This document shows positions 1,058 to 47,831 of a stretch of DNA of 49,834 nucleotides, piece after piece. Position 1 is the stretch's first letter. Every line of letters begins with the position of its first letter. Below the pieces are notes generated by a model that saw only the letters and a program-made list of their open reading frames with translations, was not told the origin of the DNA and ran no database searches. The position numbers were made by a program, and so were the translations under genes. Source of the stretch: Escherichia phage UP30; sequence record OX638287. One strand, given 5' to 3'.

Positions 1058-1528
1058 ATGACAACAATCACTGTATTCTTGGCGAAAGACGAACTGGACG
1101 ACGAAATGTCATTCTTCGCGTTTGAGCACAGAACCGGATCGCACTGGCACACTTACAGCCACTACACGGTTATCTCAATCGAAGCGTACGACGGGGATTT
1201 GCTCACTGACAAGCTGAGTGATTTTATTGAAACTGTTAAGACTAGCGAAGGTTGCGAGTGGAAAGAAGATCATGAAGTTATGCGAATGTACGAGATGATT
1301 AATCCGGTTCGCCTTGAGTCGTTCGAGCTTGATCCTGATGTGACTATTAAGGTGAGAAAGCCTGGTGAGTTGTTGCCAGGGATGCGTGTGCTGACTGGTT
1401 GCACAGGCCGTAAGGTGTGGCGCACGGTATCGAAGGTTCGCCAGCGTTCAGAAACATGCTATAGCTTATTCTTTGAAGATGGTTGGAATGAGATGGCTGG
1501 TAGCGAAGTGAAGTACCTCACCAAATAG
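1058..1528 (+). CDS. hypothetical protein (156 aa)
   Basis: ORF, GGAGG RBS, stop TAG embedded in box. Confidence 0.6.
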   Translation: MTTITVFLAKDELDDEMSFFAFEHRTGSHWHTYSHYTVISIEAYDGDLLTDKLSDFIETVKTSEGCEWKEDHEVMRMYEMINPVRLESFELDPDVTIKVRKPGELLPGMRVLTGCTGRKVWRTVSKVRQRSETCYSLFFEDGWNEMAGSEVKYLTK

Positions 1529-1574
1529 CACGAATTGTTAAAACCGGATCGGGGTATCTTGATATAGTTACCCC
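1526..1574 (+). promoter_or_regulatory. early promoter module
   Basis: tagcacgaattgttaaaac; ggggtatcTTGATATAGTtacccc. Confidence 0.6.
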
Positions 1575-1606
1575 ATCGAAACGAGATACCAATCAGAGGA
1601 ATCACC

Positions 1607-2653: not shown

Positions 2654-3142
2654 ATGAAAATCAAATTACTTTGCACTGGCGGTTATAAAGGCTTTACCCG
2701 AGATCTGGAAGCAGACCCTATCGTGGTTGATGCGGTGAAGTGTGATGATAGCCTCGGCGGCTACCGCGTGAAGTTTGACGACCTGGTTAAAGCTGGTGTG
2801 TACGATCTGGATTATGGACTTTCGGTTAGCCCGGTAGTCGGCCCGGCAGATTTCAACGAGAAGGACGGAACGATGTTCTTTTTTGAATGGGAAGTGCAAT
2901 CAAACATCAAGCCGCGCAAGGTTCGTCTTCTCAGCAATGGCGGCTACCCTATGCGCCCAGGTTATGAGAATCGCACGTTCCCGGTTATCGTTGACTTTGA
3001 AGAAATCACCGCACACTTAGCTTATATCAACGGTGAACAGCTTAATGCTGTTGGATTCGTGGGAGGTATGAATCAAGAGGCGCTATGCTTCTTCCATTGT
3101 AAAGCCGAGCCGTTCGATATTGAGTGCGAATTGGTTTACTAA
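2654..3142 (+). CDS. hypothetical protein (162 aa)
   Basis: ORF after promoter module, GAGGA RBS. Confidence 0.6.
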   Translation: MKIKLLCTGGYKGFTRDLEADPIVVDAVKCDDSLGGYRVKFDDLVKAGVYDLDYGLSVSPVVGPADFNEKDGTMFFFEWEVQSNIKPRKVRLLSNGGYPMRPGYENRTFPVIVDFEEITAHLAYINGEQLNAVGFVGGMNQEALCFFHCKAEPFDIECELVY

Positions 3143-3183
3143 GCACGAATTGTTAAAAGTGGATTTGGCCTGACTGGTATAAT
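3141..3183 (+). promoter_or_regulatory. early promoter module
   Basis: aagcacgaattgttaaaag; TGgTATAAT 3175-3183. Confidence 0.55.
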
Positions 3184-3213
3184 CCCCACATCAACCACTA
3201 AGAGGAAATCATT

Positions 3214-3720
3214 ATGTTGAAATTAGAAGATGTTAAATTCCCGATCAAATTTATCAGCATTGGCTGCGGTGAAATTACGTTCACCAATGAAGATAAGGGC
3301 ACCTGGGCCACTGAGGAAGTGTCTCAGCTTAAGTTGGAGTGGTTTATTGCACGGCATAACGAAGTAAACAAGGAAAATTCACCAAATAAGGACTACCACT
3401 ACATTATGAGTGACGCTCAGGATTCGTACAGCGTGTATGATAATTGGAAGTTGGAAGGTTCCATATTCAACGGTGTAAAACCAGAAATCAAGCCGACGCT
3501 ACAATGCACTCAGATCGAGAACATGCCATTGAGCGCCACACTAAAAGGTGTCCAGCTTGATAGCAAATCCTGGATTGAAATTACCGCCACACCGAAAACC
3601 ATTGAGGTGCACAACGATATCATCACGCTGTTGCTGCATCACGGTGGATTCAAGCATAAGACGGTATCGGGTGAAATCAGCATCAAGCGCGGAACGCTTG
3701 TCCGCTACGAGGTGAAATAA
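3214..3720 (+). CDS. hypothetical protein (168 aa)
   Basis: ORF after promoter module, AAGAGGAAA RBS. Confidence 0.6.
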   Translation: MLKLEDVKFPIKFISIGCGEITFTNEDKGTWATEEVSQLKLEWFIARHNEVNKENSPNKDYHYIMSDAQDSYSVYDNWKLEGSIFNGVKPEIKPTLQCTQIENMPLSATLKGVQLDSKSWIEITATPKTIEVHNDIITLLLHHGGFKHKTVSGEISIKRGTLVRYEVK

Positions 3721-3869
3721 TGGTTACCTGGGTTTTGATTATCCTGATGAGCAATGGACCGGATCACGTATATATGAACAGCCAGCATTCATGCAATGAG
3801 GCTCGGGCAGTCATTGCAGATAACAAGCCGTTCGGATACGAAGTAAAAACTATGTGCGTTAAACGATAG
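3720..3869 (+). CDS. putative small protein (49 aa, MVTWVLIILMSNGPDH...)
   Basis: TAATG overlap with upstream stop, GAGGTG RBS, stop TAG embedded in box; hydrophobic N-terminus. Confidence 0.4.
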   Translation: MVTWVLIILMSNGPDHVYMNSQHSCNEARAVIADNKPFGYEVKTMCVKR

Positions 3870-3914
3870 CACGAATTGCTAAACCTTCCGCAAGGCCATT
3901 TGATATAGTGGCCT
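3867..3914 (+). promoter_or_regulatory. early promoter module
   Basis: tagcacgaattgctaaac; aaggccatTTGATATAGTggcctt. Confidence 0.6.
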
Positions 3915-3949
3915 TATTGAAGCAGGGCAACCAATCAGAGGAATCAGCT

Positions 3950-4156
3950 ATGGCTACACGACTCACTCAGTGGCAGATTTACGACAAGGCATCACGCCTA
4001 CGTGAATCACTTCGCGGACTGACACCGAACGACCGCATGGAGATTATCGGGCACGCATTGCACGAACTCACGCCGCCGGACGTAACCTATCATTCATGCG
4101 GCAATAAATTCTGGAACGTAACATTCGAGGTGAAGAAACATGAGCAAGCGTCATAA
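3950..4156 (+). CDS. hypothetical protein (68 aa)
   Basis: Track ORF starts at 3908 inside the promoter hairpin; ATG 3950 follows CCAATCAGAGGAAT leader. Confidence 0.5.
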   Translation: MATRLTQWQIYDKASRLRESLRGLTPNDRMEIIGHALHELTPPDVTYHSCGNKFWNVTFEVKKHEQAS

Positions 4157-5237: not shown

Positions 5238-5456
5238 ATGGCTACTATCATGACAGCAGAAGATGCAGCACGCGACGCAGTGGAAGGAATGCGCCCAAAT
5301 AGCTCCAGAATCGCCCACTACTACAAATCTGAGGTGTCGGCAGTGCAATTGACCCACGAAATTTTAAGGCTCCCACAGGTCGATTCAGCGCGCGTAGTGA
5401 CGTGCTTAAAAAATTATTTTTGCATTGCTATTAAAACGAATAGCACGAATTGCTAA
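5238..5456 (+). CDS. hypothetical protein (72 aa)
   Basis: ORF with AAGGGTG RBS; stop TAA embedded in box. Confidence 0.35.
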   Translation: MATIMTAEDAARDAVEGMRPNSSRIAHYYKSEVSAVQLTHEILRLPQVDSARVVTCLKNYFCIAIKTNSTNC

Positions 5457-5488
5457 AACCTATCAAGGGGAATGCGCTATGATTCCCC
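5441..5488 (+). promoter_or_regulatory. early promoter module
   Basis: tagcacgaattgctaaaac; ggggaatgcgcTATGATtcccc. Confidence 0.55.
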
Positions 5489-5513
5489 TACACCAACAAG
5501 CGAGGAAACACAC

Positions 5514-5960
5514 ATGAAACACTTAATCTGTATTGAAGCACCTAACGATGAATACACTCTTCACGGCATTGGTATGTTCAAAGGTCACTATATGACCGCA
5601 AGCATTTACGACGCGCATCGAGGTGACGGCGATCTAATGATTAAGTCAAAAGAGGTTAATCCGTACATCATGCAGAATCTTGGTAATAACGAATATATGG
5701 CCTACGGATGCAATGCGGTTTACAAGCACATCAAGATCCGCAAGCGTGTAGTGCGTGCATTCAAGAAAATTGCAATGAAGCACTGGAAGATGAGCAAGAA
5801 GGACGCCGGACGCTGGGCGCGCAATGTTGCTGACTCATACTTCTACCGTAACGGTGAGTCCTGCTACTTCCTTATCGATGAACTTATGGAAAACTGCGGA
5901 GGCGACTTCAGCCAGATTAGCTTTGACGATTGGGCTAACTATGAGATTAGTTGCTGGTAA
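5514..5960 (+). CDS. hypothetical protein (148 aa)
   Basis: Track ORF starts at 5472 inside the hairpin; ATG 5514 follows GAGGAAACA RBS. Confidence 0.5.
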   Translation: MKHLICIEAPNDEYTLHGIGMFKGHYMTASIYDAHRGDGDLMIKSKEVNPYIMQNLGNNEYMAYGCNAVYKHIKIRKRVVRAFKKIAMKHWKMSKKDAGRWARNVADSYFYRNGESCYFLIDELMENCGGDFSQISFDDWANYEISCW

Positions 5961-6009
5961 TGGCACGAATTGCTAAAACTTGCTCAAGGGTATTTGATAG
6001 AATGCCCTT
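5961..6009 (+). promoter_or_regulatory. early promoter module
   Basis: tggcacgaattgctaaaac; aagggtatTTGATAGAATgccctt. Confidence 0.55.
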
Positions 6010-6043
6010 CGTTGAGTTAAGCAACCAATCAGAGGAATAAATC

Positions 6044-6577
6044 ATGGATAAAATTACAATTTGGGGTCAGACTATCAACCTGTTTCTCGGCACGCGTCGA
6101 GTTGCAATCTTTGACTTCGACGGAACACTGAGCGACGGATCTGGTAGACTTCACCTGCTACCGACAAAGGATTTGCACTTGACTGAAAGCTGGTCCGAGT
6201 TTAACCGCGCGGCAATATTTGACAACCCTATCCAAAGCACGATCGATGTGATGAACTCTATGTTTGCAGCTGGTTATCATGTGATCATTTTAACCGGGCG
6301 AAGCGATGAGGTGCGTTACGCATCTGAGTTATGGCTTAAGCATCACGGCGCTCGATATGATTACTTAGTCATGCGACCGCACACTGACAACCGCAAAGAC
6401 ACGGTAATGAAAGAAGAGGCGGTGCGCGCGATCGGTATTGATAATATTCTGGCGGCCTGGGATGACTCACCTCAAATTATTCCATTACTCCGTTCGCTTG
6501 GAATAACCACTTACGCTGTAGTTGATTATGGCGATAAAGTTCACGATCATTTAAAATCTCACGGGGTAGATGAATGA
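6044..6577 (+). CDS. HAD-superfamily phosphatase (177 aa)
   Basis: FDFDGTL (DxDGT motif I), ILTGRS, AWDDSPQ motifs. Confidence 0.6.
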   Translation: MDKITIWGQTINLFLGTRRVAIFDFDGTLSDGSGRLHLLPTKDLHLTESWSEFNRAAIFDNPIQSTIDVMNSMFAAGYHVIILTGRSDEVRYASELWLKHHGARYDYLVMRPHTDNRKDTVMKEEAVRAIGIDNILAAWDDSPQIIPLLRSLGITTYAVVDYGDKVHDHLKSHGVDE

Positions 6578-6685: not shown

Positions 6686-7258
6686 ATGAAAACAGCTATC
6701 ATTTTAAACGGCGCGCCGGGCGCTGGTAAGGACACTATCGGCGCAATCCTGGCTGACATTTACGATCACGTAGCTTTGCGCAGCTTCAAAGAGCCGATGT
6801 TTGAGATTGCTCGGGCAATACTTGGTGAAACTAACTACGAGTATTTCATGTTCTTGTATGAGGACCGTCGATACAAAGAAGAGCCAGCATCTATCCTGAA
6901 CGGTAAAAGCCCACGCCAGTTTATGATCTGGATTAGCGAAGAGGTAATCAAGCCACAGTTCGGCAATCGCTTCTTCGGTATGCGAGCGGAAAGTAAGGTG
7001 AAAGAGTCGTACTCCCTTTCGGTATTTACTGACGGTGGATTCAAAGATGAGATCTTGCAAATGATTGAAGGCGATATCCAGGTAAAGCTATGTCGAATCC
7101 ATCGCAACGGTTGCAACTTCGATAATGACAGTCGCGATTATATCTACCTGGATGATATGATCGGGGTCAACGGTTATCAGGAATGTGATTTCTTCTCTGT
7201 TGAGGGTCATCCTGAAATTACCGCTCAGCACATAGCCGCCACATTCATCAATAAATAG
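6686..7258 (+). CDS. P-loop kinase, dNMP-kinase-like (190 aa)
   Basis: N-terminal GAPGAGKDT Walker A of the GKDT type seen in phage dNMP kinases. Confidence 0.5.
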   Translation: MKTAIILNGAPGAGKDTIGAILADIYDHVALRSFKEPMFEIARAILGETNYEYFMFLYEDRRYKEEPASILNGKSPRQFMIWISEEVIKPQFGNRFFGMRAESKVKESYSLSVFTDGGFKDEILQMIEGDIQVKLCRIHRNGCNFDNDSRDYIYLDDMIGVNGYQECDFFSVEGHPEITAQHIAATFINK

Positions 7259-7303
7259 CACGAATTGCTAAAGCGTCGGTGGGGTGATTTGATATAGTTA
7301 CCT
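7256..7303 (+). promoter_or_regulatory. early promoter module
   Basis: tagcacgaattgctaaagc; TGaTATAGT 7290-7298. Confidence 0.55.
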
Positions 7304-7330
7304 CATCGACAACGAAGAGAGAAAATCGAA

Positions 7331-7540
7331 ATGATGGTATCAACTGATAAGCTTTTCACTTGCACTAAAACTTCTGAAGTATTCGAACTTATCCATACTG
7401 ATGATGGCGATTTCATGTATGACGGTTGCGACGCTTTCATTGAAGTGAAAGAAAGTGACTATGACGAAGGCGTTTATTATAATCCGGCAGTGAGCACTCA
7501 GTTTTTTACACCGATCGAAGAAGAAGGAGAAGGGGCATGA
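7331..7540 (+). CDS. hypothetical acidic protein (69 aa)
   Basis: ORF after promoter module. Confidence 0.5.
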   Translation: MMVSTDKLFTCTKTSEVFELIHTDDGDFMYDGCDAFIEVKESDYDEGVYYNPAVSTQFFTPIEEEGEGA

Positions 7541-9038: not shown

Positions 9039-9047
9039 TAAACACTA

Positions 9048-9070
9048 ACCCGCTTCGGCGGGTTTTTTTA
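9048..9070 (+). terminator. intrinsic terminator at end of early block
   Basis: cccgc-ttcg-gcggg then T7. Confidence 0.7.
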
Positions 9071-9081: not shown

Positions 9082-9107
9082 TGGTAAAATAGCACTAAAT
9101 GTTAAAC
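9082..9107 (+). promoter_or_regulatory. terS promoter: extended -10 TGgTAAAAT directly followed by dyad box
   Basis: TGGTAAAAT 9082-9090; tagcactaaatgttaaac 9090-9107; ATG 9123. Confidence 0.45.
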
Positions 9108-15007: not shown

Positions 15008-15772
15008 ATGGCTTACGAAAATTTAATGTTGCGCCCGGCGTGTCCTGGAAATCTTTCCGATACTTCAACCTACAATATTGATGGTGCTTGCGTTGCGCAG
15101 GGTGATATTGAGTTCGGCTCGGCGGTACAGGTTATCGGGATCGTTGATGGTGTTAAAGTCGTTACGGCGCTTACTGATGGTGGAACTCCTTACGGTATAG
15201 CTTTCCGTTCCCAATATGAACACCTGAGCGGTAAAATCTTAGACGGCGAAGTGTGCAACGTAGTTTCTTACGGTCGAATGTGGACGCTTACTTCTCTTGA
15301 TGAGGCTCCCGGCTTATTCTCAAAGTTGCAATTTGGATCTGGTGGCGTTGTTACTGGTGGATCTGGTTCCGTAGGTTGGACCTTCGCGGGTGGATTTGTT
15401 AAGCATGAAGACGGCTACATCATTGAGGTTCAGGTGAAACAAAATGCTTTCATCGTCCCACCGCCGCCTCCAGTTGTTCTTGTTGAATCAGCTACGATCA
15501 CTACCGACAAGGAAAGTCCTCAGCCTAACAACGTTACGATTCAGTGCGTAGCTAATGTTCTTCCTGTGAACGCTGATGATAAAACTGGCAAGTGGTCAAT
15601 TGACGCCACCAACATTGCTACTGTGGATCCGGACTCAGGTTTGGTTACTCCTGTAGGTGGAGAAGTCGTCGGTAACTTCAATATCACATGGACGGCTAAC
15701 GACGCCAGCAAGACGAAGGCAACTATTGCCTATCGCGTAGAAGCGGCTCCAACTCCAGAAGGTGAGTCATAA
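15008..15772 (+). CDS. head protein, paralog B with C-terminal Ig-like (Big_2-type) domain
   Basis: N-terminal paralogy to 14471-14947; PPPPP linker then Ig-like domain; ATG 15008 after GGAGAAATAATT. Confidence 0.5.
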   Translation: MAYENLMLRPACPGNLSDTSTYNIDGACVAQGDIEFGSAVQVIGIVDGVKVVTALTDGGTPYGIAFRSQYEHLSGKILDGEVCNVVSYGRMWTLTSLDEAPGLFSKLQFGSGGVVTGGSGSVGWTFAGGFVKHEDGYIIEVQVKQNAFIVPPPPPVVLVESATITTDKESPQPNNVTIQCVANVLPVNADDKTGKWSIDATNIATVDPDSGLVTPVGGEVVGNFNITWTANDASKTKATIAYRVEAAPTPEGES

Positions 15773-15784
15773 CACAAAAATGCT

Positions 15785-15812
15785 TTGACGCTTTAACAAA
15801 AAGTGCTATTAT
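15785..15812 (+). promoter_or_regulatory. strong sigma70-type promoter of capsid gene (TTGACG-16-TGcTATTAT) with inverted box in spacer
   Basis: -35 15785-15790, -10 15807-15812; box ttaacaaaaagtgctatta 15793-15811. Confidence 0.55.
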
Positions 15813-19525: not shown

Positions 19526-19560
19526 TAAAATCATCGTATCAACTTTATTCACTTCGTTTT

Positions 19561-19578
19561 TAACAAAAAGTGCTATTA
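19561..19578 (-). promoter_or_regulatory. dyad box, inverted relative to downstream tail chaperone gene
   Basis: taacaaaaagtgctatta; followed by CCAATCAGGAG leader. Confidence 0.45.
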
Positions 19579-23146: not shown

Positions 23147-23500
23147 ATGGCGACACTTGACACTTTCAGTTGGTGTACGCAGGTTCAAGGGGGCGGTGGC
23201 TCCCTTACCACTACCAACAATGACCGCTCCATACAGTTTGGTAACGGATACATGCAGCTTTCATCATCTGGATTTAACACCACGAGACGAGAGTATTCAG
23301 TTGTCTATGCCGGGGAAGATTTCATGTCTGTTTACGACTTCTGCGATTCTCACCGCATTAAACCTTTCGCATGGACGCCGCCGGACGGGAAGATCGGGAT
23401 ATGGGTTGTGAAGCCTAACAGCTTGGGCGCGAAGCCAGTATCACGCGACGTGATGGAAATTAACGTAACGTTTATGGAGCAGTTCACATCTATGGAATAG
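23147..23500 (+). CDS. minor tail protein (lambda gpM-like)
   Basis: 117 aa after tape measure; ATG 23147 after GGGAGG. Confidence 0.65.
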   Translation: MATLDTFSWCTQVQGGGGSLTTTNNDRSIQFGNGYMQLSSSGFNTTRREYSVVYAGEDFMSVYDFCDSHRIKPFAWTPPDGKIGIWVVKPNSLGAKPVSRDVMEINVTFMEQFTSME

Positions 23501-23516
23501 CACCACATGACAAAAG
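23498..23516 (+). promoter_or_regulatory. degenerate dyad box
   Basis: tagcaccacatgacaaaag; stop TAG of gpM-like gene is first triplet. Confidence 0.3.
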
Positions 23517-23538
23517 CCCGCCTTGCGCGGGTTTTTTT
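23516..23538 (+). terminator. intrinsic terminator
   Basis: cccgc-cttgc-gcggg then T7; same stem as at 25696. Confidence 0.65.
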
Positions 23539-23579
23539 GTGGCTGTAGAATGGTATCAACTAAACGAGAGGAAAAAGCA

Positions 23580-24362
23580 ATGAGTGAAAACAAAAAACTT
23601 TATGATGAAGAAAGCGGAAAGAGCCTGTTCCATAACTGTCTTCAATCACTGTATCCTGGAGAAATCATTACACTGATTGAGGTTGACGGAAGCAAGTTCG
23701 GCGCTCAGGTGTACAGATTCCACGGAGAGAATATACAGTACACTCCAGAAGAAATCATGCAGGCACAGCAAACCGGAACGCTGCCGCCGAAAGAAATTAC
23801 CTTCCGTGGTGAGCAGTACGGAGCGCGACCGTTCGGTATATCCGGGATCTCGTTCGACAGTTCCGGCAGAGCTACAAAGCCACAGTTGACAGTGGCAAAC
23901 ATTGATAGTCGCGTGTCTGCTATGATTCGTGCATATAACGGATTGATGCAGGCTAAGGTGACAATCTGGATAACTCAGCGTGAGCTTATCAATTCTGATG
24001 GTTCAATCGCTGATGGTGCTTATCGTAAGCTGGTATACTATATCGAACGCCCGAGCTATGTAGATAAGAGCGTAGCTCGGTTCGATCTCACGTCGCCGTA
24101 TGATATGGATGGCATCATGATCCCGTCCCGACTCACTCAAAGCGTTTGCTATTGGGCGCAGCGTGGCTGGTATAAAACCGGAAAAGGTTGCGGATACAAC
24201 GGGCAAAATGGTTACTTTGACAAAGACAATAATCCGGTAGACGATCCCGCCCTGGATTTCTGCCCGGGAACGGTAACTGCCTGTCGCCTTCGGTTCGGTG
24301 CAAACAATGAATTGGATTTTGGCGGTTGCGCGGTTGCTTCACTACAGAGGAAAAATCAATGA
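23580..24362 (+). CDS. minor tail protein (lambda gpL-like)
   Basis: Position; C-terminal cysteine cluster consistent with an Fe-S site. Confidence 0.7.
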   Translation: MSENKKLYDEESGKSLFHNCLQSLYPGEIITLIEVDGSKFGAQVYRFHGENIQYTPEEIMQAQQTGTLPPKEITFRGEQYGARPFGISGISFDSSGRATKPQLTVANIDSRVSAMIRAYNGLMQAKVTIWITQRELINSDGSIADGAYRKLVYYIERPSYVDKSVARFDLTSPYDMDGIMIPSRLTQSVCYWAQRGWYKTGKGCGYNGQNGYFDKDNNPVDDPALDFCPGTVTACRLRFGANNELDFGGCAVASLQRKNQ

Positions 24363-32024: not shown

Positions 32025-32026
32025 AC

Positions 32027-32074
32027 GGCACAAATAGCTAAACAAGTAATTAATGAGGTGTTATAATGCACCTC
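32027..32074 (+). promoter_or_regulatory. degenerate promoter module upstream of erf
   Basis: ggcacaaatagctaaac; hairpin gaggtgTTATAATgcacctc. Confidence 0.45.
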
Positions 32075-32098
32075 GTACACCAATCAGGAGAAGTTAAG

Positions 32099-32746
32099 AT
32101 GCAATTATCACCAGAAACCAACGAAATCCTTCCTGCACTGTTTAACGCTCGCAACAAATTCGCTAAAGCAAAGAAGGATGCTAAAAACAATCACCTGAAA
32201 AATTCATACGCAACGCTTGATGCAATGATGGCGGCAGTAAGTCCTGCGTTAACCGACAACGATATCATGATTCTGCAATCAATGCTGGACACCAGTACAG
32301 AAACGACATTCCATCTTGAGACTATGCTGATTCACAAATCAGGGCAGTGGGCCAAATTCTTCATGATGATGCCGATTGCAAAACGAGATCCGCAAGGCGT
32401 AGGTTCTGCAATGACGTATGCGCGACGTTACTCTCTCGCGGCGGCGCTTGGAATTAGCCAGAGTGATGACGACGCGCAGCTTGCGGTGAAATCTGTCAAG
32501 GATTGGAAAAAAGAACTTGATTCGTGTGAAGATATCGAATCACTGAAAGAGGTATGGGCTAACGCTTACCGCCAGACGGACACGGCAAGCAAGTCAATCA
32601 TTCAGGATCACTACAACGCACTGAAGGCTAAGTTTGAGATCGGAAAGGCTCGCGGCATTCGCCCGGCGCAACCGGAACAGAAAAAACAGGTTGAAGCAAC
32701 AAGCGCGAAACCTGTACAATCTCAATCAATCACCAATTTCGAATAA
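32099..32746 (+). CDS. erf: Erf-family single-strand annealing protein
   Basis: YATLDA and MTYARRYS motifs; ATG 32099 after CCAATCAGGAG leader. Confidence 0.65.
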   Translation: MQLSPETNEILPALFNARNKFAKAKKDAKNNHLKNSYATLDAMMAAVSPALTDNDIMILQSMLDTSTETTFHLETMLIHKSGQWAKFFMMMPIAKRDPQGVGSAMTYARRYSLAAALGISQSDDDAQLAVKSVKDWKKELDSCEDIESLKEVWANAYRQTDTASKSIIQDHYNALKAKFEIGKARGIRPAQPEQKKQVEATSAKPVQSQSITNFE

Positions 32747-35020: not shown

Positions 35021-35042
35021 AGTATAAACTCCTTAAGTAAAT

Positions 35043-35092
35043 AGCATGAATTGCTAAACACTGATTTTATCATTGCGCTAATGGTCTTGCAA
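35043..35092 (-). promoter_or_regulatory. tail fibre promoter (TTGCAA-17-TGaTAAAAT) with dyad box at the start site
   Basis: -35 35087-35092, -10 35064-35069 on minus; box 35043-35061. Confidence 0.5.
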
Positions 35093-35122: not shown

Positions 35123-36056
35123 AGAGTAGGTCACTTGCTGAGAATAATTTGGCTTGCATTCCTGAACGGTATCCTCCAGGGTTAGGGATGATTATTTTTA
35201 ACTGCCTGTCGTCTGCCATATACAAAGTTTCTTTGTCAGATGGTTCGCACGCCACCCTTACCTCCCGATCCCCTTTGTATCTGTACGCAACCATTTCTAG
35301 GTTTTCAGGAGTAAAGCAGGCCCATACCTCTTGCTTTGTATGAAATGCAATATGTTGAGCATCAATCCAGTTTAGACACAAGTAGATCGCCTTCTCAGTT
35401 TTACCAGTCACGGCAACCGAGCAACTTGTGTATTTCTTCGCGTAAAATGATTCCCTTCCCTCTTCATCAATAATCAAAATATTGCAAAACTCGTCATCAA
35501 GCCCATCGTCATGCACAAGTTGACACGGGATAGTGTGAAATACTGACTCACCGCCATCCTCGCGACGTTTTACGCCTACGTCGAATGATTCAGTGGGTAG
35601 TGACTCAAACATACTTAGAGGCGTGTTTACGCGCTTCTCTGTGCGCTCCATAACTTTCATCACTGCATCATGGTCTGCCATCATAACATTTACGCCAGCT
35701 ACCGGAGTGCGGCGTGCTTTTTTGTTTGCCTTGACAATGTACTCCTGCGGAACCTTACCGAGAAATCTCCCCAGGATGTTTATGCATTCACTGTACGGCA
35801 TACCAGTTAATTTCATCAACCAGCCGATCCCGGAGTCGTTGCCGCATGAGTTGCAGATCGCGCCGCCGTCGCCCGGAGTATTCAAGTTATCAGTCCAACG
35901 AAAACGGTCCTTGCCGCCGCAGTTAGGGCAAGGTTGGTGCTTCTTGTTGAAAACCTCGTTAGGCAATCCGCAAACAGACTGGAATGCATCACGCCATAAC
36001 CCCTTCATATACGGCAATACGTCCTCTTTCTGAAACATCATAAATTCTTCGTTCAC
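35121..36056 (-). CDS. DNA primase (zinc-binding, putative)
   Basis: CPNCGGKDRFRW...CNSC zinc-finger motif; GTG 36056 or ATG 36041, start uncertain. Confidence 0.55.
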   Translation of the reverse strand: MNEEFMMFQKEDVLPYMKGLWRDAFQSVCGLPNEVFNKKHQPCPNCGGKDRFRWTDNLNTPGDGGAICNSCGNDSGIGWLMKLTGMPYSECINILGRFLGKVPQEYIVKANKKARRTPVAGVNVMMADHDAVMKVMERTEKRVNTPLSMFESLPTESFDVGVKRREDGGESVFHTIPCQLVHDDGLDDEFCNILIIDEEGRESFYAKKYTSCSVAVTGKTEKAIYLCLNWIDAQHIAFHTKQEVWACFTPENLEMVAYRYKGDREVRVACEPSDKETLYMADDRQLKIIIPNPGGYRSGMQAKLFSASDLL

Positions 36057-36077
36057 TTCCAGATCTCCAAATAAAAA

Positions 36078-36132
36078 CGCGTAGAAGGATGTTACCCCGC
36101 TACGCGTCGTTTGTTTTAACTAAAAATGCTAT
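36078..36132 (-). promoter_or_regulatory. dyad box plus downstream hairpin/U-run upstream of primase
   Basis: Box 36114-36132 (minus sense tagcatttttagttaaaac); stem acgcgtag/ctacgcgt 36078-36110. Confidence 0.45.
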
Positions 36133-36568
36133 TGGTCGTTCCGATATCTTCCTTCTTCACCACTCGCATAAACTTCTTGTTCTTGCATCGCTTCTCAAGG
36201 CACTTGCCGTTACCGTCAAACTTGAGGTCGAATCGCAACCATGCCGCGCGGTATCCTTTACACCCCTGGCGACGGTAAGCGCGATGTGCAGCTTCAGCAC
36301 CTTGCCACGAAATCATATTGCGCTCTTTCCAGCCTTGCACGGTCTGATTACTAACTTTCAGAGCCTTTGCGCAGGCCGCCGGGCCACCATAATATTCGAT
36401 AAGAGCATCAAGTCGCGCTCGCAGTCCGGCGCGTGTTTCTTCTTTATGGATATAGAATCCGCAGCGTTGGCGAGGCTTTTTATCTTTACCGCGTCGGGTT
36501 CCATTGTTACCATTGATGTGACGTTTATCGATTTCACCAGTTGACTCGGCAATTCGTTGCATATTCAT
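36116..36568 (-). CDS. DNA-binding protein with Cro-like HTH and possible N-terminal HNH-like motif
   Basis: ACAKALKVSNQTVQGW helix-turn-helix; RHINGNNG resembles an HNH core; AGGAG RBS. Confidence 0.45.
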   Translation of the reverse strand: MNMQRIAESTGEIDKRHINGNNGTRRGKDKKPRQRCGFYIHKEETRAGLRARLDALIEYYGGPAACAKALKVSNQTVQGWKERNMISWQGAEAAHRAYRRQGCKGYRAAWLRFDLKFDGNGKCLEKRCKNKKFMRVVKKEDIGTTNSIFS

Positions 36569-36581
36569 CTTGATTCTCCTG

Positions 36582-36648
36582 TAGCACTTTTTGCTAAAAA
36601 CGTTTACTGTATGCCGTGTATTATAGCGTAAACGTTACAACGATTCAA
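36582..36648. promoter_or_regulatory. bidirectional promoter region sharing one palindromic -10 (TATTATAG)
   Basis: Box 36582-36601; plus -10 tattat 36619-36624; minus TATAAT 36620-36625 with -35 TTGAAT 36643-36648. Confidence 0.5.
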
Positions 36649-36661
36649 AGGATTAATAGCC

Positions 36662-38680
36662 GTGACAATGAACATCAAAAAGCAGATTGCATTACTTGGC
36701 GAGGACTACATAAAACGCACTCAGGAGCGATTCACTGTTGGTGAGGTCGTTCCGTATCCGTATCAGGTTGTTGCTTATGCTGAGATAGCGAAGCGCCTGT
36801 CAAATTATGATCATCCATTCTTCGTTAAAGCGTCAGTATCTGCGGGTAAGACAATCATTTTTGCTATGGTTGCAAAACAGTGTCAGAAAATGGGGTTAAA
36901 AATGCTTGTGCTGGCACGCCAGGGTGAGATTGTCGATCAGGATAGCGAAGAGATCGACAACTTCGGTGTGACTAACTCTATCTTCTCAGCGTCACTTGGA
37001 ATAAAATCTTGCTACTTCCCGATCGTGGTTGGCTCTGAGGGTACTGTTGCAAACGGCCTCAATAATGAGTTGGCTGATTTTGTCCCGCATGTAATAGGGA
37101 TCGACGAATGTCACCAGGTGGATTGGGAAGACCTCGCGCAAGCAATCGAAGGAAAGGAAACGATTGAGCAGATGAGGGGGGAGAAAGGGAAAGTTATCAT
37201 GGAAGGGGAGATTCCTCTGATTGGTAATGATGGTAAGCCTCTTCTCGGAACTAAGCGAAGCCAGTACACGATCGTTATCATGGAGATGATGCGTCGCTGT
37301 AAAGAGGTTCACGGGCATGACCTAAGAATATTTGGTATGACGGGATCTGAATTTCGCGGCGTTGTTCCTATTCTTGTTGAGAACCCAAAGGCGTTAGGAT
37401 TCTGGCGTGAGCGCGTTACTGATATTGACACAAACTACCTCATTGAGTTTGGTTCTGTCGTTCCGACGATATTCGGTTCAACTGACGGGGTTCATTACGA
37501 TCTGGATAAGTTCAAGGCGTCGAGCGAGGACGGCGTGCAGGACTTTACAGAGAAAGATATGAAGGCGATGGAAGATGAAATCCTTCATGACAAATCTCTG
37601 ACTCAGCGAATCATGCAAATGGTCGCCAAAAAGGCTGAAGAACGCAACGCTGTTTTGATTACATGTGCCGGGGTTCGTCACTGTAAAGAGGCGGCGGCGG
37701 CACTTCCTCCGGGAAGCACCTATGCAATCATCACTGGAGATACAGACACCAAAACTCGCAAGAAGATTCTGGACGATGTGAGGGCCGGGAAGATTAAATA
37801 CACCTTTCAGGTAATGGCTCTCACGACTGGCGTTAACGTTCCAAATTGGGATTTCAGCGTCATACTTCGTAAGATAGGATCACTCACGCTGTTGATTCAA
37901 CTTTTGGGTAGGGGTATGCGACTGCTTAAATCATGGCAGGTAGCTGAAGGAATGGTCAAGCAAGATCATCTTGTATGGGATTTCGCTGGCACCATGGATG
38001 AGTTAGGCCAACTTTATTTCGATCCGATACTTGAGCAGGCTCAATTCCAGAAGCGTTTTGAAAACGGCAAAGACCCGAAAACGTGTCCGAAGTGTGGTTG
38101 CGTAAATAGCTTCTACGCTCGCCGATGCGTTAACGTTATCGACGGTGAGCGTTGTGATCATTTCTGGACTTCTCAGATTTGCGAGGACCAGGTGGATGAG
38201 CGTACCGGGAAAATCATTGTTAAAGGATGTGGTGCAGAGAATGACGTTGTTGCTCGCGTCTGCCGTTGCTGCGATGTTTCGCTTGTCGATCCTAACCTGA
38301 AGTTGTCAGGTAAAGCGTACACCAAGAATGACTGGTACGAGGTCAAGAATTTTGAGGTAACTCTAACCAAAAACCAAAAGGGCGTTATATACAAATACAC
38401 ACTGATTAACGATGATGGCGATGAGTTCAAGGCGTATGAAAAATTCTTCCCTGAGTCCGACTCTAAGATTTGCGGTACGCTATGGAAAACGAAGGGTGTA
38501 TTGCCTCATGTGTCAGATCCTAAAATGCGTCGCTACTTTATCGGAATGAAGAACGCCATCAAGATCGTGCAGTACTCGCATCATATCGCTCATCCGGTAC
38601 GTGTCACACACCGACGCAACCAGAAGAAGGAAGATATTATTTCACGTAAAGATTTCGGTATGGAGGATATCCCACAATGA
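36662..38680 (+). CDS. SF2 helicase with C-terminal zinc ribbon
   Basis: Walker A SAGKT, DECH box, CPKCGC...C-rich C-terminus; start may be ATG 36668. Confidence 0.75.
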   Translation: MTMNIKKQIALLGEDYIKRTQERFTVGEVVPYPYQVVAYAEIAKRLSNYDHPFFVKASVSAGKTIIFAMVAKQCQKMGLKMLVLARQGEIVDQDSEEIDNFGVTNSIFSASLGIKSCYFPIVVGSEGTVANGLNNELADFVPHVIGIDECHQVDWEDLAQAIEGKETIEQMRGEKGKVIMEGEIPLIGNDGKPLLGTKRSQYTIVIMEMMRRCKEVHGHDLRIFGMTGSEFRGVVPILVENPKALGFWRERVTDIDTNYLIEFGSVVPTIFGSTDGVHYDLDKFKASSEDGVQDFTEKDMKAMEDEILHDKSLTQRIMQMVAKKAEERNAVLITCAGVRHCKEAAAALPPGSTYAIITGDTDTKTRKKILDDVRAGKIKYTFQVMALTTGVNVPNWDFSVILRKIGSLTLLIQLLGRGMRLLKSWQVAEGMVKQDHLVWDFAGTMDELGQLYFDPILEQAQFQKRFENGKDPKTCPKCGCVNSFYARRCVNVIDGERCDHFWTSQICEDQVDERTGKIIVKGCGAENDVVARVCRCCDVSLVDPNLKLSGKAYTKNDWYEVKNFEVTLTKNQKGVIYKYTLINDDGDEFKAYEKFFPESDSKICGTLWKTKGVLPHVSDPKMRRYFIGMKNAIKIVQYSHHIAHPVRVTHRRNQKKEDIISRKDFGMEDIPQ

Positions 38681-39093
38681 TTACAGACAAAGGTGATTAT
38701 TTAGAGTTTTACGAACGAGATCCCAGCGACACACGAAAGGAGGACGCGCACCAGGTAGATTGCGTGTCCTGGCTGAAATACAATTTCCCACATCTTCTAT
38801 TTTGGCACACTGTAAATGAAGGTGAAAAAACAATCACCTCGGCGCTCAGGGATGAGCAGGCTGGGTTACTTAAAGGAGTGTCAGACTTCGTTATCCTGAT
38901 TGGTGTAAACTCACGCTACCCGTTCGCAGCTATCGAACTCAAGCGGGTTAATAAGTCCGGCAAGGGAAAGGCGTCACCAGTCAGCGATAAGCAAAAGGAA
39001 TTTCTCCGCAATGTTCGTCAACGAGGTGGATTTGCTGCGGTTGCATATGGATTGGAGCAATTCAAGATCGCAATTTACGAAATGATGAAATAG
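38677..39093 (+). CDS. VRR-NUC-type nuclease
   Basis: PD-(D/E)xK-like core (VSDFVIL...AAIELK); ATGA overlap with helicase. Confidence 0.6.
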   Translation: MITDKGDYLEFYERDPSDTRKEDAHQVDCVSWLKYNFPHLLFWHTVNEGEKTITSALRDEQAGLLKGVSDFVILIGVNSRYPFAAIELKRVNKSGKGKASPVSDKQKEFLRNVRQRGGFAAVAYGLEQFKIAIYEMMK

Positions 39094-39135
39094 CACTTTT
39101 TGTTAAAACTGCCGGAATGGAATCTGGCATTATTA
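39091..39135 (+). promoter_or_regulatory. promoter module upstream of dam
   Basis: tagcactttttgttaaaac; TGgCATTAT. Confidence 0.5.
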
Positions 39136-39160
39136 CCTCACCGAAACGAGAGGACTAAAA

Positions 39161-39874
39161 ATGAAAGACTTTAATGACATTGAAACTATCGACTTTGCAG
39201 AAACTGGTTGCTCATTCACTCGCGAAGCAATAGCATCAGGCGGTTATTATCAGGCATTGAAAACGCCAACCTGTAAAGAAATCTCCGGTCGTCGATATAA
39301 GGGAACAAATACGCCTGACGCAGTTCGTGATTTATGGTCTACCCCACGAGAGGTTATTGCATACCTTGAGGGTCGTTACGGAAAATACGATCTCGATGCT
39401 GCGGCAAGCGAAGAAAATAAAGTTTGCGAGAAGTTTTATTCTCAGGAAACAAACTGCTTAAAACGTTGGTGGGGTAAGAGCAAGCACGTTTGGTTAAATC
39501 CTCCTTACAGCCGCCCTGATATATTCGTCAAAAAGGCGATTGAGCAAATGGAGCACAACAATCAGATCGATATGTTGTTACCTGCCGATAATTCGACGGC
39601 GTGGTTTACTGAGGCTCGACAGCACGCGGCTGAAATTATCTGGATTGAAGCGGATTTGACTGAAGATATCGACGGTAACGAGTATGCTCGATCCGGTCGC
39701 CTGGCCTTCATATCCGGTGAAACTGGAAAGGCGGTTGACGGTAATAACAAAGGTTCGGTAATTTTCATTATGCGCGAACTGAAAGAAGGTGAGGTTCAAC
39801 AGACCCACTACATTCCAATCACAAGCATTTGCCCTTCGGTGAAGAACAAACGAGCAAAAGTGAGGAAAGTATGA
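39161..39874 (+). CDS. dam: DNA N6-adenine methyltransferase (phage Dam-like)
   Basis: YDLDAAAS and NPPYS motifs. Confidence 0.7.
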   Translation: MKDFNDIETIDFAETGCSFTREAIASGGYYQALKTPTCKEISGRRYKGTNTPDAVRDLWSTPREVIAYLEGRYGKYDLDAAASEENKVCEKFYSQETNCLKRWWGKSKHVWLNPPYSRPDIFVKKAIEQMEHNNQIDMLLPADNSTAWFTEARQHAAEIIWIEADLTEDIDGNEYARSGRLAFISGETGKAVDGNNKGSVIFIMRELKEGEVQQTHYIPITSICPSVKNKRAKVRKV

Positions 39875-40122
39875 TGAACGAAAAAATGATTCCGGTTAAG
39901 TTAACTGAGCAAGGCTTATGGCTTCTTTATCGCGCTACGTGCTGCGAAATCATGGAACAAAACGGATTGACGAAAGATGTTATTGGTTGCGACTTATGGG
40001 AGTTTACCAGTTCTCTTGATATGTCATTCGACGAGATAAAGAATGAACACATTGATTATTGGCCTTCGCTCATACAAAGAGACGTAGAAGAATTTAAATC
40101 TGATACGATCGCACAGCACTAA
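39871..40122 (+). CDS. hypothetical protein (83 aa)
   Basis: In-frame ATG of ORF 39829-40122, ATGA overlap with dam stop. Confidence 0.45.
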   Translation: MMNEKMIPVKLTEQGLWLLYRATCCEIMEQNGLTKDVIGCDLWEFTSSLDMSFDEIKNEHIDYWPSLIQRDVEEFKSDTIAQH

Positions 40123-40157
40123 TTGCTAAAACTACCCGGCGAAAGTCGGGTATAGTT
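40115..40157 (+). promoter_or_regulatory. promoter module
   Basis: agcactaattgctaaaac; cccggcgaaagtcggg then TATAGT. Confidence 0.5.
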
Positions 40158-40188
40158 ATTTCATCGAAACGAAATGAGGAATCAGAAG

Positions 40189-40398
40189 ATGGCACGCATT
40201 AACGCAAACTTTTTCAATATCGCCCAGCAGTCTGCAAAAATGGCCGTTCATATTACGAGTAAGCAAGGTGGCAACTTCGATTGGGATATTGCTATGAACT
40301 TCCTTAAAATGTCTTATTACCGTTGCTCGGTTGAAGAAGTCGAATGCTTCATCTCTGACGTGGAGAAATTAACTAATGCTGATAAAAAAGCAAGGTAA
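40189..40398 (+). CDS. hypothetical protein (69 aa)
   Basis: ATG 40189 after promoter module and GAGGAATCAGAAG leader. Confidence 0.5.
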   Translation: MARINANFFNIAQQSAKMAVHITSKQGGNFDWDIAMNFLKMSYYRCSVEEVECFISDVEKLTNADKKAR

Positions 40399-40958: not shown

Positions 40959-42110
40959 ATGTCACAAGCTAAAATCACTACCGAGCAACTAATCGAAGAG
41001 CGCATGAACGGCCTAACGCTTCGCGAGATCGCGGAAAAGTACGGTATGCATATCCGCACGGTTGAAGCGCGTCACGCCAAACTTGCAAAAGAAGGCCACT
41101 TTCACGGTAACGAGCATGTTGCTAAAAACGTTCCAGAAGGCTTCATGGTTAAAGGTACATCAACGATGATTCGAGGTGATGGGACCGAAGTGGTCCGCTG
41201 GGTTAAGACAGATCAGGATCGTGAGAAGATTGCCGCAATGATGGAAGCGGCTCGTATTGCATTCTGCGAAGACCTGCCGCGAGCAAAGCCAACCGAGCTA
41301 CTCACCTCGCAAGGACTTACAACCGCGATCGGTAAGCTGGCGCTCTATCCGGTATTCGACCTTCACATCGGCGCGCTTGCTCACAAGCATGAGTGCGGAG
41401 AGAACTACTCTACCGACGTAGCTGAAAAAGTGCTGGGCGACTTCTTCAATTATGCGATCGATATCGCGCCAAATGCAGAGAAAGCCGTTCTGTTAATCGG
41501 CGGTGACTTCCTTCACTCTGACGGCCTTGACGCTGTAACCCCGGCAAGCGGTCACGTTCTGGATCAGGATTCACGATACGCTAAGTTGGTGCATGTAGCG
41601 ATTCGATCGGTGCGACGAGCTATCGACAAAATGCTGACGAAACACAAAGAAGTCGAAGTCCAGGTCATTGAAGGAAACCACGACCAATCAGGAATGATTT
41701 GGCTGCGCGCTGCAATGGCTGCATACTATGAAGACGAGCCGCGAGTATTCGTTGACGTGAGTCCTATGATTCTGCATAAGACTCGCTGGGGCAATACCTT
41801 GCTGGGATACACTCACGGTCACACGATGAAAAAGGCCGACATTCGACTTGCAGCAATGGCGGCAGACTTCCGCGCAGACTTCGGTGAAAGCAAATACGTG
41901 TACACGCACAGCGGACACTGGCATCATCAGACAATCACTGAACACTCGTTAGGAATTGATGAGGTTCACGGGCAGTTAGGAGCGAAGGATGCATACGCCG
42001 CGCGAGGCGGGTGGCGCTCATATCGCCAAGCGGCGGTAATCGTTTACGACAAGCAATTTGGTGAGATAGGTCGATTCATCTATCGTCCAGAAATGACAGG
42101 ATCGCACTAA
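40959..42110 (+). CDS. calcineurin-like metallophosphoesterase with N-terminal HTH
   Basis: DLH, GDFLHSDG, EGNHD, GHT, GHWHH motifs; LTLREIAEKYGMHIRTVEARH helix-turn-helix. Confidence 0.65.
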   Translation: MSQAKITTEQLIEERMNGLTLREIAEKYGMHIRTVEARHAKLAKEGHFHGNEHVAKNVPEGFMVKGTSTMIRGDGTEVVRWVKTDQDREKIAAMMEAARIAFCEDLPRAKPTELLTSQGLTTAIGKLALYPVFDLHIGALAHKHECGENYSTDVAEKVLGDFFNYAIDIAPNAEKAVLLIGGDFLHSDGLDAVTPASGHVLDQDSRYAKLVHVAIRSVRRAIDKMLTKHKEVEVQVIEGNHDQSGMIWLRAAMAAYYEDEPRVFVDVSPMILHKTRWGNTLLGYTHGHTMKKADIRLAAMAADFRADFGESKYVYTHSGHWHHQTITEHSLGIDEVHGQLGAKDAYAARGGWRSYRQAAVIVYDKQFGEIGRFIYRPEMTGSH

Positions 42111-42150
42111 TTGCTAAAAACGCCCGAAGGGATTCGGGCATAGTAACCAC
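42104..42150 (+). promoter_or_regulatory. promoter module
   Basis: gcactaattgctaaaaac; gcccgaagggattcgggc then CATAGT. Confidence 0.5.
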
Positions 42151-42173
42151 ATCGAAAACAAATAGGTAATATC

Positions 42174-42350
42174 ATGAAACGTGTTAAATGCATCCGAAAT
42201 GATTCCAAAACTCTTCCATTCCGCGTAAATCAGATCTATAGTGTGGGTTATGATTTCGGTGGTGGATTATTTGAGATTTACGACGGTCGAGGCTCTTCAA
42301 TCCAAGCACCTCTGAACGGTCACTACCTGGAATTTATTGCAATAGATTAA
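42174..42350 (+). CDS. putative small protein (58 aa)
   Basis: ATG after promoter module; below ORF-track cutoff. Confidence 0.35.
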   Translation: MKRVKCIRNDSKTLPFRVNQIYSVGYDFGGGLFEIYDGRGSSIQAPLNGHYLEFIAID

Positions 42351-45675: not shown

Positions 45676-45696
45676 CACAATGAACTCCTTAGTTGA

Positions 45697-45750
45697 CGGT
45701 GTAAATGATACACCGCCAATGGTACACGCGTTTTGCAAAAAGTGCTATTA
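45697..45750 (-). promoter_or_regulatory. promoter module (minus strand)
   Basis: Minus-sense tagcactttttgcaaaac; hairpin with TATCAT; AAGGAG. Confidence 0.5.
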
Positions 45751-46168: not shown

Positions 46169-46199
46169 TGCGCTCACTCCTGATTGGTTTTCTTGAATA

Positions 46200-46256
46200 A
46201 GGCCACTTTATCAAATGACCTTACGGCAATATTAACAAATCGTGCTATTTACCAGG
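46200..46256 (-). promoter_or_regulatory. promoter module (minus strand)
   Basis: Minus-sense tagcacgatttgttaat; aaggtcatTTGATAAAGTggcctt. Confidence 0.5.
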
Positions 46257-47806: not shown

Positions 47807-47831
47807 GATTCTTTCCTCATTTGCTGTTGAT

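Follow-up and report, generated by a model that had tools for sequence, protein, structure and literature searches.

RNA hairpins at gene ends nested in predicted promoters without a −35 hexamer: a proposed composite cassette of a T1-like phage

The window analyzed here, 49,834 nucleotides (nt; 49.8 kb) of Escherichia phage UP30 (sequence record OX638287), is the genome of a T1-like siphophage (Drexlerviridae, Tunavirus relatives) with the gene order of phage T1. It holds about 24 copies of a box with the consensus ATAGCACnnnTTGyTAAAA, and our subject is the module that this box opens, together with a hairpin of variable sequence found within it; most of the short intergenic gaps among the presumed early genes contain one such module. 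We consider it probable that the modules are composite cassettes, in which an attenuator/stabilizer hairpin belonging to the 3′ end of the upstream cistron is nested in a promoter without a −35 hexamer. The proposal starts from four direct observations: the anatomy of the modules, the covariation of their stems, the specificity of the structure for the sense strand, and its link to upstream gene ends. What we infer is where transcription starts, when the modules fire and which activity dominates at the RNA level.

According to this proposal, each module would close one transcription/translation unit and open the next. Its parts would be, in order, an upstream-gene stop codon, for which the TAG inside ATAGCAC usually serves; the conserved box, from about −50 to −32; the hairpin; a σ70-type −10, often TGn-extended, with no −35 hexamer; a start at an A 7 nt after the −10; and a conserved A-rich leader with a Shine-Dalgarno (SD) sequence. 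The hairpin would stand outside the promoter mechanism and form in the sense RNA of polymerases reading through from the upstream gene. As a 3′-end element of the upstream cistron, it could act as an attenuator or pause site for read-through and/or shield the upstream mRNA against 3′ exonucleases; the two roles are not separable in silico, hence "attenuator and/or stabilizer." It would occupy promoter positions that make no base-specific contacts, either in the spacer or at −24 to −19 paired with the discriminator at −6 to −1.

Anatomy of the box modules

An earlier note, made from the letters of this sequence, had flagged one module, and its box, stem, extended −10, leader and ATG (1607) all lie where the note had placed them. 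The parts of this module are:

1525-1543, +: box ATAGCACGAATTGTTAAAA, about −50 to −32, family-specific
1526-1528, +: upstream stop codon TAG within the box, ending the open reading frame (ORF) 1058-1528
1551-1556 and 1569-1574, +: hairpin GGGGTA/TACCCC, −13.6 kcal/mol as RNA, z −2.28
1547-1577, +: the same hairpin as extended by an outer helix, GAT/ATC
1560-1561 and 1563-1568, +: loop content, TG and −10 TATAGT
1575, +: A, predicted +1, followed by leader ATCGAAACGAG
1574-1585, +: leader motif CATCGAAACGAG
1589-1602, +: SD region CCAATCAGAGGAAT, with ATG at 1607

When up to two mismatches were allowed, GCACNAATTGYTAAA matched the window 24 times, against 1.07 matches expected. In 18 gene-oriented window copies, a −10 (TAnnnT, often TGn-extended) lies exactly 22 bp past TTGyTA, and an A, the likely start, is found 7 nt past the −10; predicted starts of this kind include 1575, 2629, 3916, 5490, 7305 and 47831. 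The module sample was extended to relatives by scanning IMG/VR once for the box and adding T1, which yielded 351 unique modules; the distance of 22 bp from TTGNTA to the −10 recurs in 218 of them. The −10 profile (T60 A78 T61 A55 A/G T74, in %, with the G of the upstream TG at 74%) is the signature of a σ70 −10. The six bases after the hexamer are pyrimidine-rich, and an A stands 7 nt downstream of it in 70% of the modules; this A is the expected transcription start. Modules are oriented like the downstream gene, whose start codon is ~70-85 nt past the box, the SD and ATG lying 20-35 nt beyond the predicted +1.

No −35 hexamer was present in the modules at 16-18 bp from the −10, and a standard σ70 (−35/−10) scan detected 0 modules; standard scanning of the window gave promoter-like and terminator-like counts no higher than those of shuffles. 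TTGyTA was considered as a −35 and rejected, given the 22-bp spacing and no usable −10 at 17 bp. With a −10 at a constant distance of 22 bp and without a −35, the modules are best read as putative promoters that combine an extended −10 with an upstream box. Within the box lies a perfect dyad, TAGCA-N5-TGCTA, centered near −42, which is the position of class II activators, and the near-invariant G, C and G of the box are 99% conserved. Candidate readers of the box are sigma, the C-terminal domain of the α subunit (α-CTD), and a phage or host factor. UP elements, the sites of α-CTD, are A/T-rich, lie at about −60 to −40 and match AAAWWTWTTTTnnAAAA; on comparison by eye, only the T-type box variant TTTTTGTTAAAA was UP-like, and it lies ~9 bp too far downstream. 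IHF and Fis sites were considered and rejected, also on comparison by eye.

Among relatives (alignment A1), TG at −15/−14 occurs in 70% of modules without a hairpin, in 41% of those whose hairpin flanks the −10 (flanking type) and in 13% of those whose hairpin lies in the spacer (spacer type); hairpin and TG extension trade off. Many spacer-type promoters have neither a −35 nor a TG and must therefore depend on the box. The center of the inverted repeat had been described as TTGATATAGT-like, which fits part of the copies but not the flanking type in general, as the figure of 41% shows.

The hairpin is followed by the A-rich leader, ATCGAAACGA. Leader motifs are shared between modules, as had been noticed: CCAATCAGAGGAAT is found exactly at 1589, 3931 and 6025 and as variants before the ATGs at 19598, 32099, 46168 and 49148, and CATCGAAACGAG exactly at 1574 and 48249(−) and with one mismatch at 39139 and 40162. 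A further exact 14-nt copy of CCAATCAGAGGAAT on the minus strand (37211-37224), within the helicase gene, is probably a chance match, because no box lies upstream and the coding strand encodes IPLIG of the helicase.

Structure, strand and position of the hairpins

An inverted repeat flanks or overlaps the −10 in 12-14 window copies. Twelve modules are of the flanking type, with box starts at 786, 1525, 2579, 3866, 5440, 5960, 7255 and 32025 (+) and at 46248, 46765, 47881 and 48298 (−), and two more, 45748(−) and 36132(−), have a hairpin around the −10. This agrees with the claim of at least 12 modules with differing stems, and every stem pair quoted for them is present in the window. An inverted repeat placed around the −10 does not describe three other modules (39090, 40113 and 42101), in which the hairpin lies within the spacer. 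Seventeen gene-oriented window modules were folded as RNA and compared with dinucleotide shuffles, the check on folding energy that the note had proposed; 45748(−) and 36132(−) were folded without shuffles. Nearly all of the 17 form a hairpin, and the 12 flanking-type modules reach −10.5 to −22.4 kcal/mol, with z values of −2.3 to −7.3.

The same was seen among relatives. A hairpin of at least 5 bp is present in 131 modules of an unselected, diverse alignment of 150 sequences; 49 are of the flanking type and 82 of the spacer type, ending at the −10. As a control, chimeras were built whose 5′ and 3′ halves came from different modules. The −10 was enclosed by a helix of 7 bp or more in 49.6% of modules vs. 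9.3% of chimeras, and the mean minimum free energy (MFE) of the 38-nt core was −11.5 vs. −7.5 kcal/mol (Mann-Whitney 1e-18). There are 76 distinct stem sequences across the modules.

Covariation, which the note had also proposed to check, was analyzed in a homogeneous subfamily of 21 sequences (A2). Here 96.1% of cells are paired, compared to 81.0 ± 1.5 in shuffles and 32-49% in slid controls, and the covariation score is 0.471 vs. 0.181, neither level being reached by any of 500 shuffles. Double-sided changes number 33, where 10.4 were expected. AAGGCC/GGCCTT is exchanged for GAGTGC/GCACTC or GGAGAC/GTCTCC, and the outer helix, which reaches +4 to +7, covaries as well (CTTC/GAAG to CTTG/CAAG). 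Because the stems differ and yet stay complementary, the inverted repeat is under structural selection, and what is selected is a structure rather than a protein-contact sequence, as the earlier note had argued. For spacer-type hairpins the fixed-register covariation test was not significant, because their stems and loops vary in register.

Of the two structures offered in that note, a DNA cruciform or an RNA hairpin, the data favor the RNA hairpin, formed by the sense strand. Sense folds are more stable than antisense folds (MFE −11.46 vs. −9.12 kcal/mol; Wilcoxon 3e-13) and richer in G·U pairs (174/1294 vs. 90/1156), and GNRA tetraloops number 21 of 50 in sense folds against 1 of 32 in antisense folds. 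Within the subfamily, departures from Watson-Crick pairing comprise 17 G·U and 1 A·C. With DNA parameters, in contrast, each hairpin strand folds with only −2 to −6 kcal/mol (−4.8/−5.0 for the flagged hairpin; for 7275-7310, −5.3 on the top strand and −2.0 on the bottom strand, bottom z −0.34), and the cost of cruciform extrusion is, by rough estimate, 18-38 kcal/mol. This sense-strand bias, together with the weak DNA folds, argues for an RNA hairpin and not a cruciform. Moreover, transcripts from the predicted start would not contain the 5′ arm, so the hairpin should be possible only in RNA arriving from upstream.

Two further results go beyond the earlier note. First, hairpins accompany the ends of co-directional upstream genes and not promoters as such. 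Of 206 modules, 165 have a co-directional upstream ORF whose stop codon is in the box or adjoins it; this codon is the TAG of ATAGCAC in 90 of the 165 and the TAA of GCTAAAA in 24. Modules with an ORF ending at the box (n = 165) have a mean of −13.2 kcal/mol, 82% being at or below −10, whereas those without one (n = 30) have a mean of −8.2 kcal/mol, with 37% at or below −10 (p 1.8e-5). In the window, 15 of 19 modules with an upstream gene have a hairpin, compared to 0 of 5 without (Fisher 0.003). These five, namely 49227(−), 36581(+) and three conserved antisense-oriented modules, retain the box and a −10-like hexamer and have no stable hairpin, and for four of the five the T1 equivalents behave alike. 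Second, the hairpin may also lie in the spacer, and its placement differs between orthologous cassettes: ahead of one and the same gene, it surrounds the −10 in one phage and occupies the spacer in another. Its position is thus interchangeable. This freedom fits poorly with a role in promoter melting and is natural for an RNA element that needs only a location between the stop codon and the next transcript.

Several points weigh against our proposal. Three window modules are exceptions: the stem of 3140 is degraded, 40445 lacks a hairpin despite its upstream gene, and 36581, which has no such gene, carries a palindrome. The covariation subfamily was chosen by loop pattern, a choice that fixes the two innermost pairs, and in the mixed 150-sequence alignment at fixed register the effect for the flanking type is modest (47.8% paired vs. 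42.3%), although it beats all 500 shuffles. Module counts are not independent, as copies share descent. In the 9 nt after the stem, the flanking type has a mean of 1.2 T and 4.5 A, and spacer-type discriminators and tails are not enriched in T relative to hairpin-less modules. Finally, literature searches for transcript maps of T1-like phages found no data on 5′ or 3′ ends.

The remaining modules of the window are as follows (module, strand, hairpin and start codon):

786-863, +: flanking hairpin GGGATAAC/GTTATCCC, 808-838; −10 at 824-829; ATG 861
2579-2656, +: flanking hairpin GGGGTT/AACCCC, 2607-2628; −10 at 2617-2622; ATG 2654; z −3.89
3140-3216, +: degraded hairpin, 3159-3187; −8.8 kcal/mol, z −0.78; intact stem, GGGGATT/AATCCCC, in the T1 ortholog
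3866-3952, +: two-helix hairpin, 3885-3922; inner helix AAGGCCA/TGGCCTT, outer helix CTTC/GAAG extending to +4 to +7; ATG 3950; z −4.30
5440-5516, +: flanking hairpin AGGGGAAT/ATTCCCCT, 5466-5489; ATG 5514
5960-6046, +: hairpin AAGGGTA/TGCCCTT, 5982-6017, with a sense-strand U·G pair at the position of a C-G in T1; ATG 6044
7255-7333, +: 15-bp hairpin with four G·U pairs, 7275-7310; ATG 7331; −22.4 kcal/mol, z −7.31
32025-32101, +: hairpin GAGGTG/CACCTC, 32053-32076; −10 TATAAT one base nearer the box; ATG 32099; z −4.50; between exonuclease-like and Erf-like genes
36054-36132, −: hairpin enclosing TAACAT, 36108-36076, with a true U tract; GTG 36056; −18.6 kcal/mol; at the end of the helix-turn-helix (HTH) regulator gene, starting a primase-like gene; T1 ortholog annotated as terminator 35930-35971
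39090-39163, +: spacer type, hairpin 39110-39129 up to −10 CATTAT; leader ACCGAAACGAG; ATG 39161; T1 ortholog annotated as terminator 38973-39001
40113-40191, +: spacer type, CCCGGC-GAAA-GTCGGG, 40133-40152, abutting −10 TATAGT; ATG 40189; z −3.71; T1 ortholog annotated as terminator 39998-40024
42101-42176, +: spacer type, GCCCGAA-GGGA-TTCGGGC, 42122-42139, abutting −10 CATAGT; ATG 42174
45676-45748, −: 11-bp hairpin around TATCAT, 45719-45693; GTG 45678; −16.1 kcal/mol
46166-46248, −: hairpin AAGGTCA/TGGCCTT, 46229-46193, with a sense U·G pair; ATG 46168; z −4.83
46685-46765, −: hairpin GGGAGT/ACTCCC, 46736-46715; ATG 46687; z −4.82
47804-47881, −: hairpin GGGATG/CATCCC, 47854-47832; ATG 47806
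48214-48298, −: imperfect hairpin, 48278-48244, leader CATCGAAACGAG; ATG 48216; z −2.98
49146-49227, −: control, first leftward module, no upstream gene, no hairpin; TATGAT; ATG 49148; −3.9 kcal/mol (T1 equivalent 48751(−), −4.2 kcal/mol)
36581-36664, +: control, divergent-region module, no upstream co-directional gene; z −1.37; only the A/T-rich palindrome AACGTTTAC/GTAAACGTT is present

The three antisense-pointing modules (box and −10, no hairpin) lie at 15759-15809 (−), 19526-19576 (−) and 35041-35091 (+); they are kept at the same places in T1 (15086−, 18850− and 34902+), and one is present in TLS (DR7). For 19576(−) and 35041(+), which adjoin the major tail and the primase/tail-fiber regions, the predicted start is ~15-20 nt ahead of a terminator hairpin (GGGGGCgcaaGCCCCC; CCGCCcgaaGGCGG), and these two could make antisense RNAs of only ~35-45 nt. 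A variant in the late region, 23497-23582 (+), has a degenerate box, ATAGCACCACATGACAAAA, then a canonical terminator, GCCCGCcttgcGCGGGTTTTTTT, and continues with TGTAGAAT, leader ATCAACTAAACGAGAGG and an ATG at 23580; it is the same cassette idea with a real U-tract terminator. A box-only copy at 9089-9107 (+) comes after a canonical terminator (9047-9064; AACCCGCttcgGCGGGTTTTTTT), with the SD and ATG of a small terminase-like gene directly next, and has no −10 at the usual distance. A scan against Rfam at the gathering threshold gave 0 matches in the whole window, and a tRNA scan of the window found nothing.

Alternative explanations

The hairpins might instead direct RNA processing, with RNase III cutting the stem or RNase E the A-rich leader of polycistronic read-through RNA, so that cistrons acquire their own ends. 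We regard this as unlikely, although sense-strand RNA structures do sit between cistrons, the A-rich single-stranded leader ATCGAAACGA does follow the hairpins, and a few stems are long, such as the 15 bp at 7275-7310. RNase III substrates normally need roughly two helical turns. Typical stems here have 6-9 bp (most 5-9 pairs, a few 13-15), which is below the ~20 bp of such a site, and the stems hold nothing conserved that would mark a point of cleavage. This explanation overlaps with the 3′-stabilizer version of our proposal and does not exclude it.

Equally unlikely, in our judgment, is that the hairpins are efficient factor-independent terminators, each cassette being a fully insulated transcription unit. 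Existing annotations do fall on exactly these hairpins: in the T1 record, hairpins of the spacer type and one copy with a U tract are labeled rho-independent terminators, the record of SA12KD so labels orthologs of the window's flanking-type hairpins (as a WebGeSTer or TransTermHP prediction), and the table for TLS places terminators T57 and T62 directly after DR10 and DR12 (PMC11447400). U tracts are indeed present in some copies, namely 36132(−), 23497(+), and TLS T57 and T62, and the stem-loop of a T4-type cassette cut lacZ expression about as strongly as rrnB T1 (PMC2839356). These annotations, however, are software predictions and not measurements, and WebGeSTer accepts hairpins without U tracts. 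The flanking-type tail is A-rich, with the base counts given above, in line with the earlier statement that these hairpins lack U tracts and are not standard terminators, and spacer-type tails are no more T-rich than those of hairpin-less modules. As most hairpins have no U tract, efficient intrinsic termination is not expected by E. coli rules. The thought that the −10/discriminator of spacer-type modules serves as their U tract, making them canonical terminators, was dropped for want of any T enrichment over hairpin-less modules. In spacer-type modules, e.g., 40113-40152 and 42101-42139, the antisense strand has the complement of the box A-run, UUUUAGCAA, no more than 1-3 nt past the hairpin; such copies could therefore also stop antisense transcription, like bidirectional terminators.

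A more speculative mechanism, to which we give a slightly smaller chance still, is a hand-off from terminator to promoter. A hairpin without a U tract would stop a read-through polymerase held by a −10 pause or by a box-bound factor, and the core enzyme would re-initiate in place, resetting every cistron to the same expression level. The −10 would then act as a σ70-dependent pause signal in the non-template strand, and the box would mark a new class of promoters recognized by some phage or host factor, which would explain why only three canonical promoters were found in TLS.

Two explanations appear improbable. In one, the structure belongs to the promoter at the DNA level: supercoiling would extrude a cruciform or a non-template-strand hairpin with the −10 pre-melted in its loop, and promoter strength would respond to superhelicity, as at the promoters of the N4 virion RNA polymerase (RNAP) or at engineered cruciform-controlled promoters. 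The −10 of the flanking type does lie in the loop, the commonest end point of the 3′ arm is −1 (19 of 49 hairpins), and the promoters have no −35. Yet the DNA hairpins are weak on each strand, their loops are 6-14 nt long, and the estimated cost of extrusion is high. The bottom strand is much the weaker one, because only the sense strand has G·T as its non-Watson-Crick pairs. A stable hairpin is missing where no gene lies upstream of the promoter, orthologous cassettes shift the hairpin into the spacer and off the −10, and the GNRA loops of spacer hairpins are an RNA feature. In the other, which we rate no higher, hairpin-bounded cassettes are substrates for recombination that mediate modular gene exchange, the hairpin having no transcriptional role. 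Homology ends fall in modules in 15 of 88 clusters, against 7.5% by length (~2-fold), the box provides stop codons in two frames, different cassettes are found at orthologous genes, and the T4-type cassettes recombine and form mini-circles (PMC2839356). Recombination would account for the conserved parts but not for base-pairing selection with sense G·U pairs and GNRA loops, and the excess of breakpoints could reflect fast-evolving stems that end alignments.

That the inverted repeats are operators for a dimeric DNA-binding protein has next to no chance: they do overlap the promoter, but pairing and not sequence is conserved, no single protein could read 76 different stems, and for the variable stems in general this identity was rejected as effectively refuted by their diversity. 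The repeat at 36600-36635, in the divergent control region beside a Cro-like HTH gene, may well be an operator. In this region (36569-36664), a near-consensus σ70 promoter on the minus strand, TTGAAT-17-TATAAT, would drive the Cro-like HTH gene 36116-36568(−). The −10 of this promoter and that of the helicase gene's box module (TATTAT) face each other and overlap, and the palindrome AACGTTTAC-N20-GTAAACGTT, plausibly an operator, encloses both. Either the palindrome or the box could be bound by the HTH protein, which matches PHROG 2856 "transcriptional regulator" and, below threshold, P22_Cro.

Significance and comparison with known systems

The first 6 kb of the window match 284 phage records, the best of which (vB_EcoS_SA12KD, IME18, Sfin-1 and JMPW1) are ~88% identical. 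Taken singly, the parts were known, the box from a publication of 2024 and the hairpins from terminator annotations in GenBank; what appears to be new, within the literature that could be searched, is the composite reading, along with the evidence for sense-RNA stems tied to upstream gene ends. If correct, the composite cassette would place the "terminators" annotated in T1-like genomes inside promoters, and transcription-unit maps of T1-like (Drexlerviridae) genomes could be drawn from sequence alone, in a family that is common in phage therapy collections and a frequent cause of fermenter contamination. It also raises mechanistic questions, namely how a promoter whose only upstream element is 22 bp from the −10 is recognized, what hairpins without a U tract do to read-through transcripts, and whether nesting the hairpin in the promoter serves a mechanistic purpose.

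Among the literature searched for the box sequence, a paper on phage TLS alone matched (PMC11447400). It reports a 21-nt direct repeat, aaATAGCACnnnTTGnTAAAA, in TLS and also in T1, Rtp and Rogue1, which is the box of the present modules, in the same orientation and ~76 nt from start codons (PMC11447400). The authors left the function of the repeat open (stoperator, enhancer site or UP element) and found "only three" σ70 promoters in TLS (PMC11447400); their description includes neither the −10 at its constant 22-bp distance nor the A start, leader or nested hairpins. In the Rogue1 paper, promoters were sought by consensus search only. Our reading would answer the question posed for TLS, the repeat being the upstream element of some 20 non-canonical promoters per genome, with a −10 and no −35.

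The modules resemble the promoter-early stem-loop (PeSL) cassettes of T4-like phages (Arbiol et al., 2010, PMC2839356; Comeau et al., 2014, PMC4122927), for which promoter and terminator/attenuator activity, recombination and mini-circles have been shown experimentally (PMC2839356, PMC4122927). Both kinds of cassette have stems rich in G-runs and C-runs, both are concentrated among small genes of unknown function, and both have been proposed to attenuate upstream transcription and to act as recombination sites. As in PeSLs, a variable stem-loop in the T1-type cassettes lies between the box element and the −10 or overlaps the −10. In contrast, the T1-type sequences are unrelated and come from another phage family. 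PeSL promoters match the full σ70 consensus (−35 TTGACA, −10 TATAAT and an AT-rich upstream region), whereas the T1-type has the −10 with TTGyTA 22 bp away, and PeSL activities have been measured, while the T1-type cassettes are known here from sequence. Promoter/stem-loop cassettes would thus occur in a second, unrelated phage lineage besides the T4-likes, which suggests that self-contained gene cassettes have been selected convergently where gene turnover is rapid.

With intrinsic terminators, the T1-type hairpins share a GC-rich sense RNA hairpin just past a stop codon, often with a GNRA or UUCG loop. The U tract, however, is missing in most copies, where the tail is the −10/discriminator or the A-rich leader, and a tract of ~7-9 nt after the stem is found in only a few, such as 36132(−) and 23497(+). 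The early promoter hairpins of the N4 virion RNAP have 5-7 bp stems and 3-nt loops and need their dedicated RNAP, and Horwitz and Loeb reportedly described a supercoil-controlled cruciform promoter. These promoters resemble the present ones in having an inverted repeat at the promoter core, but T1-type loops have 6-14 nt, the structure is biased to the sense strand, and none is found at promoters without an upstream gene. In the relative TLS no phage RNAP or sigma gene was found (PMC11447400), a search that was not made in the window. The middle promoters of T4 that depend on MotA also combine a σ70 −10, often extended, with a phage-specific box containing TGCT in place of the −35. No MotA or AsiA homolog was found, none having been sought, and the MotA box is centered at about −30, whereas the T1-type box lies at about −50 to −32 with its dyad near −42.

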